From Acidimicrobiia bacterium (GTDB lineage: Bacteria > Actinomycetota > Acidimicrobiia > IMCC26256 > PALSA-555), in assembly GCA_035468285.1 (NCBI GenBank), contig DATISY010000067.1, positions 836 through 64,835 of the forward strand: a DNA stretch of 64,000 nucleotides, written 5' to 3'. Under the pieces are notes generated by a model. It was not told where the DNA came from, searched no databases, and saw only the letters and a program-made list of their open reading frames with translations. Below are positions 3,361 through 24,585 of this stretch, piece by piece. The translations under genes and the position numbers were made by a program. Every line of letters begins with the position of its first letter. Position 1 is the first letter of the stretch.

Positions 3361-4287
3361 ATGGACGACACCAGCCGCCGTGCGTCGAGCACGTTCGTGA
3401 TCTCCATCACGCCGTTCACCGCCGACGGTGCGCTCGACGAGGCTGGGCTGCGGGCCCATCTGGGTCGCCTCGCCGCGGCGGGGATCGGCGTCTACCTCGC
3501 GGGGAGCGGCAGCGGTGAGGGCTACACCCTCGACACCGGCGAGGTGGAGCGCGTCCTGGCCGTCGGCGCCGAGGTCCTCGGCGGGCGGGTCCCGGTCCGG
3601 GCGATGGGCGTCGAGCCGCGCACCGCGGCGCAGATGGTCGAGATGGCCCGGGTCGCGGCCCGGTCGGGGGTCGAGGCGATGCAGCTCTACTCGCTCGATC
3701 AGGGGCACGGGAACCGGCCGACGCGGGCCGAGCTCGACCGGTACCTCCGCACCGTGCTCGACGCGGCGACGCTGCCGGTGGTGCTGTCGACGCACCAGAG
3801 CGTCGGGTACCTCCTCGCCCCGGACCTGATCGGTGCCCTGCTCGACGACTACGACCAGGTGATCGGCGTCAACTGCTCGACACTCGACGTGTCGTACCTG
3901 CTGCGCGTCATCGAGGCGGTCGACGAGCGCGCCGACGTGCACGTCGGTGGCCCGCTGCACGCCCTCACCTGCCTCGCGCTCGGGGGCCAGGGGTACCTGA
4001 GCTCGGACGGGAACCTCGCCCCCCGCTTGTGTGTGTCGGTCATCGACGCGTACCGGTCCGGGGACCTCGCCGCGTGTCATGCGGCGTTCCGGACCGTCAT
4101 GCGGCTGTTCGCCGCGACACGCGACGCGGGCGGTGTCGCCGCGACGAAAGCCGCGCTCGACCTGCTCGGCCTGCCGGGGGGTCCACCACGGCCACCGCGT
4201 CTGCCCCTCGACGCGCCGGGCCGGGAACGGGTCCAGCGCACCATCGTCGAGGCCCTGGCTTTGGCCGAGCGCGAACACCTGACCTGA
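3361..4287 (+). CDS. Dihydrodipicolinate synthase/N-acetylneuraminate lyase family aldolase
   Basis: 308 aa. N-terminal ITPFTADGALDEAGLRAHL and GVYLAGSGSGEG blocks fit the DapA-like class I aldolase family. Divergent from the amidohydrolase gene. Confidence 0.8.
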   Translation: MDDTSRRASSTFVISITPFTADGALDEAGLRAHLGRLAAAGIGVYLAGSGSGEGYTLDTGEVERVLAVGAEVLGGRVPVRAMGVEPRTAAQMVEMARVAARSGVEAMQLYSLDQGHGNRPTRAELDRYLRTVLDAATLPVVLSTHQSVGYLLAPDLIGALLDDYDQVIGVNCSTLDVSYLLRVIEAVDERADVHVGGPLHALTCLALGGQGYLSSDGNLAPRLCVSVIDAYRSGDLAACHAAFRTVMRLFAATRDAGGVAATKAALDLLGLPGGPPRPPRLPLDAPGRERVQRTIVEALALAEREHLT

Positions 4288-4343
4288 CCACACCTGACCG
4301 CGCGCCGCGTGTGGCGACGCGCGGTCAGGCAGGCGGGCGGGTG

Positions 4344-4718
4344 TCACATGTTGCCGTCACCGTCGTTCGGCCCACCGAAGTTGTCGCCGTCGTGGTCGCC
4401 GCCCCCGTTCTGAGGGATCGGGTTCGGCGGCGGAGGCGGTGCCATAGCCGGCGGGGGTGGCGGCGTGAACCGGCGCGGCGGAGGCGGCGGTGGGGACGGT
4501 GGCGGTGGCAGTGGTGGGGGAGGGGGTTGCGTCGTCGGCGGTGGAGGCGGCAGTGTCGTCGTGGTCGTCGTCGGCATCGTCGTGGTCGTGGCGGCCACAC
4601 GGACTTGGGGACGGCTCGAGGTCGAGCCCGACGAGGCCCACACCGCACCGGCCCCAGCGACGATGACCACTGCGGTCGCCACGCCGATGAGCCGGGTCCG
4701 CGTCGAGATGGAACGCAT
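4344..4718 (-). CDS. Proline-rich secreted or membrane-anchored protein
   Basis: 124 aa from ATG 4718, with a GGAGAAGGA RBS upstream. N-terminal hydrophobic anchor (LIGVATAVVIVAGAGAVWA), then a Thr run, poly-Pro tracts and a Gly/Asp/Asn-rich C-terminus. Low complexity, no family recognised. Confidence 0.5.
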   Translation of the reverse strand: MRSISTRTRLIGVATAVVIVAGAGAVWASSGSTSSRPQVRVAATTTTMPTTTTTTLPPPPPTTQPPPPPLPPPPSPPPPPPRRFTPPPPPAMAPPPPPNPIPQNGGGDHDGDNFGGPNDGDGNM

Positions 4719-5045
4719 CAGGGATTCCTTCTCCTTTGGTTGGTGGAGTGCTTCCCCGGCGCTCGACGGTCCTACGGATGAGCGCGTCCCGCGGATTGCG
4801 CGCAACACCGGGCCCGGGACGGGCCCTGGCGGTAACATGGGCTTGTGATCGGTACCGGCCAGTGCGCGCGCGGCGCAGGAACCAAGGAGGTGAGGCGGAT
4901 GCGACGACGAAGCGAACCCCCGAGTCCCAGCCGTCGTCCCGCCTGCTGCCGGTCACTGCTGCCCTAGTCGCCTCCTCGCGACGGCGGCCCCGGCGGCGCG
5001 GGCTCGATCTGCTCGCCCTGCCCGCCGGAGACCCCGGAGGCCCCC

Positions 5046-6383
5046 ATGGCCCGCCGTCCACCCTTCCCCAGCCCTGCCGCGCTGCGGTCCCGTCGCGACC
5101 GCCGCACCGAACGGCTCCTCGCCAACCGCGCCGTCCTCGACGCGCTGACCTCGGTGGCAGGTCTGGTCGGGCGGCCCGTGCGGATCACCGGCGGCGCCGA
5201 GGTCGGCCGCCTCGTCGACCTCGTCGCCCGATGGGACGGCGAGCCCTACCCGCCCATCACCGGCCTCATGGTCAAGGTCGGTCGTCGCCTCGCGTTCGTC
5301 CCGAGCGAGCAGATGGCCGACCTGGGCCGGACCGAGGTCACGCTCCGGTCCGCCACGTTCAGCCTGCGCGACTTCGAGCGCCGCCCCGGCGAAGTCCTGC
5401 TGAACGGTGACGTCCTCGACCATCAGCTCGTCGACGTCGACGGGGTCCGCGTCGTGCGCGCCTCGGACCTCTACCTCGCCCGAGTCGCCGATGGATGGCG
5501 CCTCGTCGGCGTCGACGTCGGCTTCCCGTCGCTGCTGCGCCGCCTCGGGCCCCGCCGGTGGCGGGCGCGCCCGACACCGGAACGGGTGATCGACTGGGCC
5601 GCGATCCAGCCCTTCGGGGTCGACCCCGGCCCGTTACGCCTCCAAGGCGAGAACCAGACGTTGGCCCGGCTCCGGCCGGGCGAGCTCGCCGACCTCCTCG
5701 AGGAGCTGGGTCGACCCGAGCGGACCGAGCTCCTCGAGCGGCTCGGCCCCGACTCCGCGGCCGACGCGCTCGAGGAGATGGAAGCCGACGAGCTGCGCAC
5801 CCTGCTCCGTGACCTGCCGCGGCAACGGGCGGCGGAGCTGATCGGCGCGATGGAGCCCGACGAGGCCGCCGACGCGCTGCGGGACCTCGACCCCGACGAG
5901 CTCGACGAGGTCCTCACCGCGATGAAGCCGACGGTGGCGATGAAGCTGCGCCCGCTGCTCGCCTACCCGGAGAGCAGCGCCGGCGGGCTCATGACCACCC
6001 GGCTCCTCCTCGCGCACCGCCGGGACCGGGTCCGCGCCGTCCGGGAGCGGCTCCCTGCCGCGACCGACGAGCGCGGCGACCTCGACGGGGTCGTGGTCGT
6101 CGACGACGGCGGCCGGCTCCTCGACGACCTGCGCCTCGTCGACCTGCTCCTCGCCGGCGACGACGACGTCCTCGAGGAGCTCGTCGAGTCGTCAGAGCCG
6201 GTCACGGTCCACAGCGACGCGCCGCTCGACGAGGTCGTCGACCGGCTCATCGACTCGCGTCGCACGTCGGTGATCGTCACCGACGACGACCACCACCCCA
6301 TCGGTCGCATCCTCGCCGACGACGTCATCGACGCCCTCGTCCCGGCCCGCGGTCGTCACCGCGTCCATGTCCGCTTCCCATGA
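5046..6383 (+). CDS. Soluble PRC-barrel / MgtE N-terminal domain / CBS-pair protein (no MgtE membrane domain)
   Basis: 445 aa with GGAGG 5 nt upstream. Acidic helical MgtE_N-like region (ELADLLEELGRPERTELLERLGPDSAADALEEMEADE...AAELIGAMEPDEAADALRDLDPDELDEVL), followed by a CBS-like pair. No hydrophobic segments. Confidence 0.8.
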   Translation: MARRPPFPSPAALRSRRDRRTERLLANRAVLDALTSVAGLVGRPVRITGGAEVGRLVDLVARWDGEPYPPITGLMVKVGRRLAFVPSEQMADLGRTEVTLRSATFSLRDFERRPGEVLLNGDVLDHQLVDVDGVRVVRASDLYLARVADGWRLVGVDVGFPSLLRRLGPRRWRARPTPERVIDWAAIQPFGVDPGPLRLQGENQTLARLRPGELADLLEELGRPERTELLERLGPDSAADALEEMEADELRTLLRDLPRQRAAELIGAMEPDEAADALRDLDPDELDEVLTAMKPTVAMKLRPLLAYPESSAGGLMTTRLLLAHRRDRVRAVRERLPAATDERGDLDGVVVVDDGGRLLDDLRLVDLLLAGDDDVLEELVESSEPVTVHSDAPLDEVVDRLIDSRRTSVIVTDDDHHPIGRILADDVIDALVPARGRHRVHVRFP

Positions 6384-7636
6384 ACCGGCCCTTCCCCCGG
6401 ATGGCGCCCCGGCGCCGGGCCGTCTGGCTCTTCGCCGCCCTGGGGCCGGGTGTCATCGCCGCGAACGCCGGCAACGACGCGGGTGGGATCGCGACGTACG
6501 CGTCGGCGGGCTCCCAGTTCGTCTACCGGATGCTGTTCCTGATGGTCCTGGTCACGGTGGCGCTCGTCGTCGTCCAGGAGATGTCGGCCCGGCTCGGCGC
6601 GTACACCGGGGAGGGCCTCGTCTCGCTGATCCGGGAGCAGTTCTCGCTCCGGACCGCGACCGTCGCCGTCGTCTGCCTCGTCGTCGCGAACCTCGGGCTC
6701 GTCGTGTCAGAGTTCGCCGGGATCGGCGCCGCGTTCGAGATCTTCGGGGTGTCTCGCTACATCGCGGTGCCGTTGGCCGCGGTCGGGATCTGGGCCGTCG
6801 TGGTCCTCGGCTCCTACCGGTACGCGGAACGGGTGTTCCTGCTGCTGTCGGTGGCGTTCCTCGCGTACCCGATCTCGCTGTTCCTCGGACACCCCGACTG
6901 GGGCCAAGTCGCGACGAACACCTTGTGGCCGCACTTCCTGGCCAGCCACGACTTCATCGTCCTCGCGGTCGCGCTCGTCGGCACCACCATCACCCCGTAC
7001 ATGCAGCTGTACCAGGCGGCCGCGGTCGTCGACCGCGGCATCGGGCCCGACGACTACCCCCGGGAACGGCTCGACAGCGTCGGCGGGGCGATCTTCGCCA
7101 ACCTCATCAGCATGTGCATCATCATCGCCACCGCGGCCGCGATCGGCGGGACCGGCGCGCTCACGTCGGCCGACCAAGCGGCCCGGGCCCTCGAGCCCGT
7201 CGCCGGAGCGAGCGCGGCGATGCTCTTCGCCGTCGGGCTGCTCGGCGCGTCGGCTCTCGCCGCGGCGGTGGTGCCGCTCTCGACGGCGTACGCGCTGGCC
7301 GAGGCGGTCGGGGCGGAACGGTCGGTGTCGCGGCACTTCCGTGAGGCGAAGCTGTTCCTCGGGCTCTTCACCGGCCAGGTCGTGCTCGGCGCCGCGGTGG
7401 CGCTGATCCCCGGGAACCTGATCAACCTGCTCCTCAACACCCAGATCCTGAACGGGCTGATCACCCCGGTGATCCTGGTGTTCATCCTCATCCTCGCCAA
7501 TCGGCGCACGGTGCTCGGCGACGCGGTGAACTCGCCCCGGTTCCGGGCCGTCGCGACGATCTCGGTGATCGGCGTCAGCGTGCTGGCGACCGTGGTCGTC
7601 GCCCAGACCGTCGGCGGTTGGCTCGGGATGGCCTAG
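6380..7636 (+). CDS. Nramp (SLC11)-related transporter with non-canonical metal-site motifs (NRMT-like)
   Basis: 418 aa, about 11 hydrophobic segments. The start overlaps the upstream stop (ATGA). TM1 reads GNDAGGIATY where Nramp has DPGN. TM6 reads GTTITPYMQLY where Nramp has GAxxMPHNLYLH. Confidence 0.85.
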   Translation: MNRPFPRMAPRRRAVWLFAALGPGVIAANAGNDAGGIATYASAGSQFVYRMLFLMVLVTVALVVVQEMSARLGAYTGEGLVSLIREQFSLRTATVAVVCLVVANLGLVVSEFAGIGAAFEIFGVSRYIAVPLAAVGIWAVVVLGSYRYAERVFLLLSVAFLAYPISLFLGHPDWGQVATNTLWPHFLASHDFIVLAVALVGTTITPYMQLYQAAAVVDRGIGPDDYPRERLDSVGGAIFANLISMCIIIATAAAIGGTGALTSADQAARALEPVAGASAAMLFAVGLLGASALAAAVVPLSTAYALAEAVGAERSVSRHFREAKLFLGLFTGQVVLGAAVALIPGNLINLLLNTQILNGLITPVILVFILILANRRTVLGDAVNSPRFRAVATISVIGVSVLATVVVAQTVGGWLGMA

Positions 7637-24394: not shown

Positions 24395-24585
24395 CTGGGC
24401 GGGAGAGCCCTCGCCCACCCGGGCGGGGCGCCGAAGGAGCAACCACTCCCGGAACCTCTCAGGCCCATGAACCGTCCGGGCGAGGCCACGCTGGAGAGCA
24501 GGCGGGAAGCCATCTCGTCTCACCGAAGGGGAAAGTCGGTCCGCCGGCGAATCTCTCAGGTCCACTGACAGCGCGGGAGCGACGG
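24395..24585 (+). promoter_or_regulatory. Tandem glycine riboswitch (two aptamers) in the gcvP leader
   Basis: Aptamer 1: GGGAGAG...CGCCGAAGGAGCAA...CTCTCAGG (about 24398-24465). Aptamer 2: CTGGAGAG...CACCGAAGGGGAAA...CTCTCAGG...GACAG (about 24490-24572). Both carry the conserved GGAGAG / ACCGAAGGrGcAA / CTCTCAGG cores. It ends about 70 nt before the gcvP ATG. Confidence 0.85.

Follow-up and report, generated by a model that had tools for sequence, protein, structure and literature searches.

In a 64,000-nucleotide stretch of DNA from an Acidimicrobiia bacterium (GCA_035468285.1, contig DATISY010000067.1, positions 836 to 64,835; hereafter the window), a soluble MgtE-like protein is encoded directly in front of a transporter of the SLC11/Nramp family. 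Gene 1 (5046..6383; open reading frame (ORF) call, Pfam, NCBIfam, AlphaFold) encodes the soluble partner, a protein of 445 aa with MgtE_N and CBS-pair regions behind a probable PRC barrel, and gene 2 (6380..7636; ORF call, Pfam, NCBIfam, phmmer, BLASTP) encodes the transporter, a protein of 418 aa that is assigned to the NRMT clade; both genes, like all features described below unless stated otherwise, lie on the plus strand. Together with a short upstream ORF (uORF) in the leader, they form a self-contained three-part operon, consisting of leader uORF, soluble MgtE-like sensor gene and nrmT gene. We propose that gene 2 may function as a uniporter for Mg2+ (and Mn2+) and that gene 1, translated together with it, may act in the cytoplasm as an MgtE-type Mg2+ sensor that holds uptake back, with additional control of expression in the leader; to this reading we give an even chance. 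NRMTs constitute a fourth class of bacterial Mg2+ importers. EleNRMT from Eggerthella lenta, the only member that has been both solved and assayed, was studied without the partner gene that very probably adjoins it in its own genome. Because the partner is nearly always present, keeps the residues of the Mg2+-dependent clamp of MgtE and occurs as the same module fused to MgtE pores, the sensor module appears to have been reused on two unrelated transport folds.

The association of the two genes has been described before. The initial annotation had taken the regulatory pairing of a detached MgtE-type sensor with an NRMT-type permease to be uncharacterised, but Shin et al. 2014 (PMC4072509), who discovered NrmT through M-box riboswitches, including in Clostridia, had already reported that most NrmT genes adjoin a gene with homology to MgtE's N-terminal cytoplasmic domain, and had speculated that this neighbour provides cytoplasmic feedback regulation or metal chaperone activity. 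The idea of a two-component system of Mg2+ sensor and permease is thus a reasonable and already published hypothesis. In the literature after Shin et al. 2014, we found no paper testing the regulatory role of the partner and none linking PRC barrels with MgtE, and the eLife 2022 paper on the EleNRMT structure does not mention the partner gene. Three features are undescribed in the literature that we found: the PRC barrels in the architecture of the partner family and of its pore-fused relatives, the presence of a partner gene at the probable E. lenta locus, and the leader ORF with its (D/E)PPS motif.

Gene 2 is assigned to the NRMT clade

Gene 2 matched the Pfam Nramp family (PF01566) over residues 37-385 with an E-value of 2e-83. 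In a phmmer search against solved structures, the best match was EleNRMT (7qia, E 3e-94, 320 bits), whereas the structures of MntH scored about 55-63 bits (E about 1e-15), the plant aluminium transporter NRAT 41 bits, and human NRAMP1/2 at most 40 bits. The identity between gene 2 and the EleNRMT construct was 44% over 371 residues in BLASTP, and the score of gene 2 against the NCBIfam MntH model was 123, far below the cutoff of 430. These scores agree with the earlier placement of gene 2 in the NRMT clade rather than among the Mn2+ transporters of the MntH type.

The ion-site motifs point in the same direction. NRMTs carry DxxG in helix 1 and TxxA/T in helix 6, whereas classical Nramps carry DxxN and A/CxxM (Ramanadane et al. 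2022). In gene 2, the motif in transmembrane helix 1 (TM1) is D33-A-G-G36 (6476..6487, within GNDAGGIATY), an NRMT-type DxxG in which D33 and G36 are the counterparts of D55 and G58 in EleNRMT, and the motif in TM6 is G201-T-T-I-T-P-Y207 (GTTITPY, 6980..7000), both read in the sequence and aligned. The earlier observation that DAGG stands in place of DPGN, and that the canonical Asn, Met and His are all replaced, was therefore borne out. T202 is the counterpart of T224 in EleNRMT. At the canonical Met position, where EleNRMT has Ala227, gene 2 has T205, and Y207 takes the place of the proton-pathway His in TM6b of classical Nramps, a position at which EleNRMT has Trp. Gene 2 also retains Q379 and E133 of EleNRMT, as Q355 and E111, respectively. 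The pair of motifs DAGG and TTIT was found in 72 of 79 close relatives of gene 2, and among distant relatives with both motifs readable (24 loci), TM1 has D-x-G-G (mostly DAGG) and TM6 has T-x-I-(T/S/A). By similarity scores and motifs, every sequence-level comparison places gene 2 within the clade, and it classifies as a canonical NRMT of the Thr variant.

EleNRMT transports Mg2+ and Mn2+ and does not transport Ca2+, its transport is uncoupled from protons, and its residues T224 and G58 are needed for Mg2+ (Ramanadane et al. 2022). H+-uncoupled Mg2+ transport is known just for EleNRMT and the proteins of Clostridium acetobutylicum. By homology to EleNRMT, gene 2 is predicted to be a proton-uncoupled importer of Mg2+ (and Mn2+) with a widened ion site composed of D33, G36, T202, T205 and Q355. 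It shares with EleNRMT and CabNRMT (Ca_c0685; Shin 2014, Ramanadane 2022) the fold, the DxxG and TxxA-or-T motifs and the loss of the TM6b His, and with EleNRMT very probably also the same partner upstream at the E. lenta locus. In contrast to these proteins, gene 2 is known from sequence alone, its host is an uncultured Acidimicrobiia-like actinobacterium, and its locus carries no M-box.

Architecture of the MgtE-like partner

Pfam detected an MgtE_N domain at residues 209-309 of gene 1 (E 3e-22; 5670..5972) and a CBS match at residues 382-432, which covers one repeat of a CBS pair that extends over residues ~317-432 (5994..6341) according to Pfam, alignment and AlphaFold. No match to the membrane pore of MgtE (PF01769) was found by Pfam, and the chain ends at residue 445, just past the CBS pair. 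Because the pore half is missing, the score against TIGR00400, the model of full-length MgtE, was only 71 bits with a cutoff of 233. Residues 203-434 align to crystal structures of the MgtE cytosolic domain, and in the AlphaFold model residues ~205-435 superpose on these structures with a TM-score of 0.82 and an E-value of 1e-17 (Foldseek), indicating that the fold of the N domain and the CBS pair is shared with Thermus thermophilus MgtE (PDB 2yvx, 2zy9 and 2yvy). The mean predicted local distance difference test (pLDDT) score of the model was 72, with values mostly of 80-94 in the C-terminal half and one dip to about 72. When the whole model was used as the query in Foldseek, all of the matches listed were MgtE, CBS or CBS-containing proteins, which leaves the N-terminal half uninformed. 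As the initial annotation had stated, gene 1 has an MgtE_N domain and a CBS pair and no membrane domain; lacking both the pore domain and the plug helix, it is therefore not an MgtE channel. On these grounds we place gene 1 among the soluble MgtE-like proteins associated with NrmT (Shin et al. 2014).

The most strongly conserved stretches of gene 1 are found among its N-terminal 200 residues, in which Pfam detects no domain. The presence of a PRC-barrel-like region here had been suggested from the sequence, and this suggestion was supported through homologues, whereas in the window protein itself Pfam found no PRC barrel even at E<=10. A search of 1.8 billion cluster representatives with gene 1 gave 427 matches at E<1e-30, and the best 150 of these, which were listed, were mostly 400-450 aa long and aligned from residue ~37 to residue ~440 of gene 1 with 28-37% identity. 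Full-length homologues that align from residue ~37 match PF05239 (PRC) with E-values of 2e-12 to 1e-3, and the corresponding segment of gene 1, residues ~37-108 (5154..5369), is beta-rich in the model with a pLDDT of ~84. It is followed by a second, degenerate PRC-like beta region with a conserved LLRRLG / IDW linker (residues ~109-200, 5370..5645), for which the model confidence is low. Weak PRC matches to this region were obtained in 13 of 35 family members (best E 2e-4), and a profile search of the PDB with it returned no significant match; it includes one of the most conserved stretches across the diverse family, which served as a search pattern. Because homologues match PF05239 and the next ~90 residues weakly match PRC, we describe the family architecture as PRC, PRC-like, MgtE_N and CBS pair.

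The two ends of the protein are distinctive as well. Residues 1-36 (5046..5153) form a clade-specific Arg/Pro-rich extension, MARRPPFPSP..., which is near-invariant in close homologues as MARRPP(F/L)P..., absent from distant members and predicted to be disordered (pLDDT <50 for residues 1-32). At the C-terminus, a conserved basic tail, VPxRGRxR... (6342..6380), stands in alignments in place of the acidic plug helix of MgtE, which carries the Mg2 and Mg3 sites. Compared with the 'partial MgtE' genes of Shin 2014 (Acp2976 of Acidobacterium capsulatum and the split pair in the Ca_c0685 operon), gene 1 is the same soluble homologue of the MgtE cytoplasmic region immediately upstream of nrmT, whereas that paper describes a 'small' MgtE fragment without mention of PRC barrels, and the 445-aa gene 1 has tandem PRC-like domains, a clade-specific Arg/Pro-rich N-terminus and an ATP site whose residues are lost.

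The same PRC-MgtE_N-CBS module was found fused to the MgtE pore PF01769 in three proteins, P0193, P0230 and the 677-aa product of the metagenomic locus L143 (L143:3935-5965). These PRC-MgtE channels have the same order of PRC, MgtE_N and CBS pair as gene 1, to which P0193 and P0230 are 33-39% identical, and carry the pore in the same chain, whereas gene 1 stops after the CBS pair. In the fusions the module lies in cis to the pore that the MgtE cytosolic module gates, which by analogy supports a link of the partner to Mg2+. No fusion of the partner to an Nramp domain was present among the best 150 representatives of 6373 matches, the longest proteins among these 150 being MgtE fusions.

Conservation of the Mg2+-site and ATP-site residues

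To compare gene 1 with MgtE at the residue level, the Mg2+-site residues of T. thermophilus MgtE (TtMgtE; PMC5882242) were mapped onto gene 1 through a HMMER alignment. In the MgtE_N domain, E59 (site Mg7), D91 (site Mg4) and D95 (site Mg6) correspond to D240, D272 and D276 of gene 1, respectively. In the CBS pair, D247 (site Mg4) and D250 (site Mg5) correspond to D426 and D429, and D226, which also belongs to site Mg5, is replaced by R405. E258 and D259 (sites Mg2 and Mg3), which sit on the MgtE plug helix, have no counterpart, since this helix is absent from gene 1. D240, D272, D276, D426 and D429 are invariant in 33 close homologues and are 83-97% Asp/Glu in 87 diverse ones. Because these five acidic residues are conserved and E258 and D259 are missing, the sites at which the N domain is held against the CBS domain are kept, and those connecting the module to the pore are gone. 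Such a pattern would be anticipated if the protein acts on another partner, and the retention of most acidic Mg2+-site residues is in line with the earlier view of the partner as a sensor module of the MgtE cytosolic type. Any regulation by gene 1 would differ from that of MgtE in acting on a different transporter and through a separately made protein.

The ATP-contact residues of T. thermophilus MgtE are Y170, R187, N203 and F227 (PMC5529423). In gene 1 all four are replaced, by G348, V365, E381 and R406, respectively. They are lost throughout the Acidimicrobiia clade of the window, and up to about half of the distant members keep Tyr, Arg and Asp at these positions. Tuning of the sensor by ATP is thus probably absent in the window clade.

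Co-conservation of the pair

The stop codon of gene 1 overlaps the start codon of gene 2 in the sequence ATGA at 6380..6383, an arrangement typical of translational coupling; the gene coordinates, the length of gene 1 and this overlap were confirmed by the ORF call and the sequence. With gene 2 as the query, 80 close loci were found, one of which has no upstream DNA, and a homologue of gene 1 lies directly upstream on the same strand in all 79 assessable ones. The reverse search started from distant partners that have about 30-35% identity to gene 1, represented by an 18-sequence subset of an 87-sequence alignment. From it, 80 metagenomic loci were taken, and the 70 with >400 nt downstream were assessed. 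In 63 of these 70 an Nramp homologue immediately follows the partner gene; one of the remaining loci is the pore fusion of L143, and six have unrelated neighbours. The spacing between the two genes is <=20 nt in 64 of 75 close and 44 of 58 distant loci, and the commonest junction is the 4-nt overlap (23/75 close, 14/58 distant). The survey of co-occurrence that had been suggested for soluble MgtE_N-CBS genes and NRMT-like genes thus revealed strong co-conservation.

One of the distant loci (L154) deserves separate mention. Aligned over 402 positions with the EleNRMT construct that was crystallised, its transporter shows 11 differences, and this is the same number as the engineered stabilising substitutions of the construct, which makes L154 very probably the EleNRMT locus of E. 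lenta itself. A 407-aa gene with PRC, MgtE_N and CBS regions is located 215 nt upstream of the EleNRMT-like gene (L154:1936-4603).

Two further loci carry an M-box Mg2+ riboswitch (135 bits) immediately in front of the partner gene (L135:3602-3772 and L136:3737-3912). Both the sensor gene and the transporter gene are therefore under riboswitch control in these loci, and homologous pairs under M-box control support the Mg2+ link. The Rfam scan covered 60 distant loci, in 58 of which the M-box was undetected, the close-clade loci lying outside that scan. The position of the M-box (ykoK) upstream of the pair is that also described by Shin 2014. The window leader has none: RF00380 was not found at the gathering threshold in the whole window or at E<=10 in 4200-5300, and no other Rfam family was found in the leader.

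Among the partner genes with unrelated neighbours, two (L137:5334-6499 and L140:5355-6704) have no adjacent Nramp gene and are followed by pairs of AhpC/thioredoxin-like genes, and others adjoin a histidine kinase gene (L095) or a gene for an OpgC-like acyltransferase (L107).

A conserved uORF in the leader

When the upstream regions of relatives were aligned, a conserved block emerged in the leader, which was resolved as a small ORF. In the window, this uORF has 22 codons (MRRRSEPPSPSRRPACCRSLLP*, 4899..4967) with its ATG at 4899 and a GGAGG Shine-Dalgarno (SD) sequence at 4886..4890, 8 nt before the ATG; comparable SD sequences are present in related loci. An E-P-P-S motif is encoded at 4914-4925, at codons 6-9 of the uORF and at codons 5-8 in most relatives. 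A uORF of 18-30 codons with an SD sequence and [DE]PPS was found in 59 of 74 assessable close-clade loci, with the motif starting at codon 5 in 49 of the 59, and in none of 70 distant loci. Random control windows from the same loci contained such a uORF in at most 1.2% of cases, a figure that includes accidental sampling of the real element. The peptide outside (D/E)PPS is not conserved among relatives. Inside the motif, the E/D codon and both Pro codons are free to vary at the wobble position, whereas all 52 distinct leaders use AGT for Ser (4923-4925 in the window). Given the high GC content of these genomes, AGT is expected to be rarely used. This pattern is that of a putative translated stalling peptide that is further constrained at the level of nucleotides or tRNA, and the invariant AGT could be a slow codon or a site of RNA contact. 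It should be noted that gene 1 itself opens with a second Pro-Pro motif at codons 5-6 (M-A-R-R-P-P-(F/L)-P) in the window clade.

The 78 nt between the uORF stop and gene 1 (4968..5045) are rich in GC and contain hairpins, and the SD sequence of gene 1 (GGAGG, 5036-5040) is mostly paired in predicted folds. In one subclade, RNAalifold predicted a hairpin with compensatory changes next to the sequestered SD sequence of gene 1. The window leader folded no better than shuffled sequences (z = -0.9). From the EPPS motif onward, the window leader has 49% C vs 27% G over 78 nt, and the mean difference of C minus G after the motif is +0.11 across leaders vs 0.00 in the background. Such a C-rich, G-poor tract suits a Rho-loading (rut) site, as in mgtA, and is only suggestive of one. 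A long-range pairing of CGAGU in the uORF with codons 2-3 of gene 1 was predicted in one subclade and was dismissed as a general feature, as the window has GCCCG at that place.

The closest functional parallels are found in Salmonella, where the acidic residues and N-terminal prolines of MgtL (mgtA) and MgtQ (mgtB) cause Mg2+-sensitive ribosome pausing or destabilisation that raises expression of the transporter. Like these leaders and MgtP (mgtCBR), the uORF is a very short ORF before a Mg2+ transporter gene, with an acidic residue and prolines within the first ~8 codons and a remaining peptide that is unimportant. In contrast to them, it has consecutive Pro-Pro followed by an invariant AGU Ser codon, shares no sequence homology with them, and belongs to another phylum and another transporter family. 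By this analogy the uORF may sense Mg2+ itself, and a proline-containing leader ORF could then extend Mg2+ sensing of the MgtL type to Actinomycetota. The leader ORF, as judged from sequence conservation, appears to be the most novel lead of this analysis, with a mechanism that is hypothetical.

Proposed mechanism and alternative explanations

Taken together, these observations suggest the following mechanism. Gene 1 would be made in step with gene 2 through the overlapping stop and start codons, giving a cytoplasmic protein built like the regulatory half of MgtE with PRC barrels in front. The sensor would probably be a dimer mediated by the CBS domains and docked on the cytoplasmic face of the transporter through the PRC module and/or the basic tail. 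At high cytoplasmic Mg2+, the N and CBS domains would clamp together and the uniporter would be held shut or slowed in trans; when Mg2+ falls, the sensor would relax and uptake would resume. Because an NRMT is presumably uncoupled and driven by the membrane potential, judging from the properties of EleNRMT, it would need a brake against overload. A second control at the level of expression probably resides in the leader, as an M-box in some lineages and as a hard-to-translate (D/E)-P-P-S ORF here. The most specific form of this idea is two-level control in Acidimicrobiia, in which gating in trans by the PRC-MgtE sensor would be combined with an independently arisen (D/E)-P-P-S(AGU) leader that, by pausing or destabilising the ribosome, switches the operon on at low Mg2+; we put it forward tentatively and with considerable doubt. 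If it were true, the use of hard-to-translate leader peptides to sense Mg2+ would be a strategy of bacteria in general rather than a peculiarity of enterobacteria.

Several observations weigh against the sensor-restrained uniporter. NRMTs work alone, as Ca_c0685 and Ca_c3329 complemented without a partner (PMC4072509) and EleNRMT functions by itself in liposomes (Ramanadane et al. 2022); this fits a regulator but is no proof of one. Co-expression of the A. capsulatum pair in Mg2+-transport-deficient B. subtilis gave no further rescue, and A. capsulatum NrmT in B. subtilis fully rescued a Mn2+-uptake mutant and relieved Mg2+ auxotrophy only at mM Mg2+ (both PMC4072509). Because this protein behaved mainly as a Mn2+ transporter, Mg2+ specificity cannot be assumed for every member of the NRMT clade. 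The coupling mechanism cannot equal that of MgtE, because the plug helix and the sites Mg2 and Mg3 are missing, and the position of D226 is Arg in the window clade and Asn, Asp or Arg across the family. The 6 orphan genes among the 70 distant loci show that the partner can exist without an adjacent NRMT. At the level of the leader, the subclade of the window yielded no consensus structure supported by covariation, the covariation term being unfavourable. The idea that stalling of the ribosome at Pro-Pro exposes the SD sequence of gene 1 was abandoned, since constraint folding of 40 leaders gave no systematic change (2 up, 2 down).

These points bear on three other accounts of the partner. The system may handle mainly Mn2+ or another divalent cation here, with a partner that senses something other than free Mg2+, as the behaviour of the A. 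capsulatum transporter with its same type of partner would suggest. EleNRMT also transports Mn2+, the window has no M-box, and gene 2 has Thr rather than Ala at the Met position, where none of the members characterised in the literature consulted has Thr. We nevertheless regard this account as improbable, given that TxxT belongs to the published NRMT consensus, that T224 and G58, on which Mg2+ transport by EleNRMT depends, are conserved in gene 2, that M-box riboswitches control homologous pairs, and that the partner keeps the Mg2+-site residues of MgtE. Similarly small is the chance that the partner is an accessory subunit or metallochaperone, which would receive or deliver the cation or stabilise or target the transporter, instead of an inhibitor. 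Shin et al. 2014 (PMC4072509) named 'metal chaperone activity' as an alternative, and on its own in detergent EleNRMT lacked stability and required 11 stabilising mutations (Ramanadane et al. 2022). The partner domain is very acidic with several Mg2+ sites, and stoichiometric co-translation through ATGA fits a subunit; yet transport needs no partner, and the homologous module of MgtE is a gate and not a chaperone. Mg2+ is moreover abundant and is not known to need chaperones. It is more unlikely still that the two genes share a transcript only, with the PRC/CBS protein directed at the ribosome, RNA or another transporter or acting as a stand-alone signalling protein. PRC barrels are present in RimM, a factor for ribosome maturation, as well as in sporulation proteins including YlmC, a name that some sources give to homologues of gene 1, and the orphan partner genes (6/70) would agree with such a role. 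However, without a functional link it would be difficult to account for adjacency of 90-100% with tight or overlapping junctions among homologues whose identity falls to about 30%, and the module is fused to MgtE pores elsewhere.

For the leader, the competing explanation is that the uORF is a general attenuator responding to translation stress, EF-P or proline supply, or a nucleotide element that can be read as an ORF by chance. The invariance of AGT in all 52 distinct leaders is a constraint at the nucleotide level, which such an element would account for, and we found no supported alternative RNA structure that would link stalling to gene 1. The Salmonella proline-codon leaders are also reported to respond to proline or EF-P supply. 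On the other hand, the strong and well-spaced SD sequence, the fixed codon position, the wobble-only variation of E/D-P-P and the free remaining peptide have the look of a translated stalling peptide, and the position before a Mg2+-transport operon resembles that of mgtL and mgtQ. We consider the attenuator or chance element possible, though on balance unlikely.

Gene reality and genomic context

Hundreds of full-length homologues were found for each of gene 1 and gene 2. Gene 1 has >100 full-length homologues at 59-89% identity, N-terminus included, and for gene 2 the species-representative genomes contain 80 relatives at 65-91% identity, almost all of them in metagenome-assembled genomes of Acidimicrobiia and other Actinomycetota. 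Because of these homologues, including the conserved N-terminus of gene 1, both ORFs are real genes and not chance ORFs of high-GC sequence. A metagenome contig in ENA carries the same pair. The flanking genes encode a protein of the dihydrodipicolinate synthase (DHDPS) family, an amidohydrolase, an aldehyde dehydrogenase, a flavin monooxygenase and a gamma-glutamyltranspeptidase. Because these enzymes are unrelated and the downstream gene is convergent, the pair stands alone. Scans for sigma-70 promoters and intrinsic terminators found nothing, as expected at such GC content.

Upstream of the leader, the low-complexity stretch at 4344-4848 can be read on the minus strand as a Pro-rich ORF of 164 aa (4344-4838) or on the plus strand as a Gly-rich ORF, and has no Pfam match. 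A public gene call on the metagenome contig corresponds to ~4561-4848 (plus strand) of the window. Elsewhere in the window, a glycine riboswitch aptamer (RF00504, 62 bits, E 2e-10) is located at 24481-24581 on the plus strand and is the sole Rfam match at the gathering threshold.

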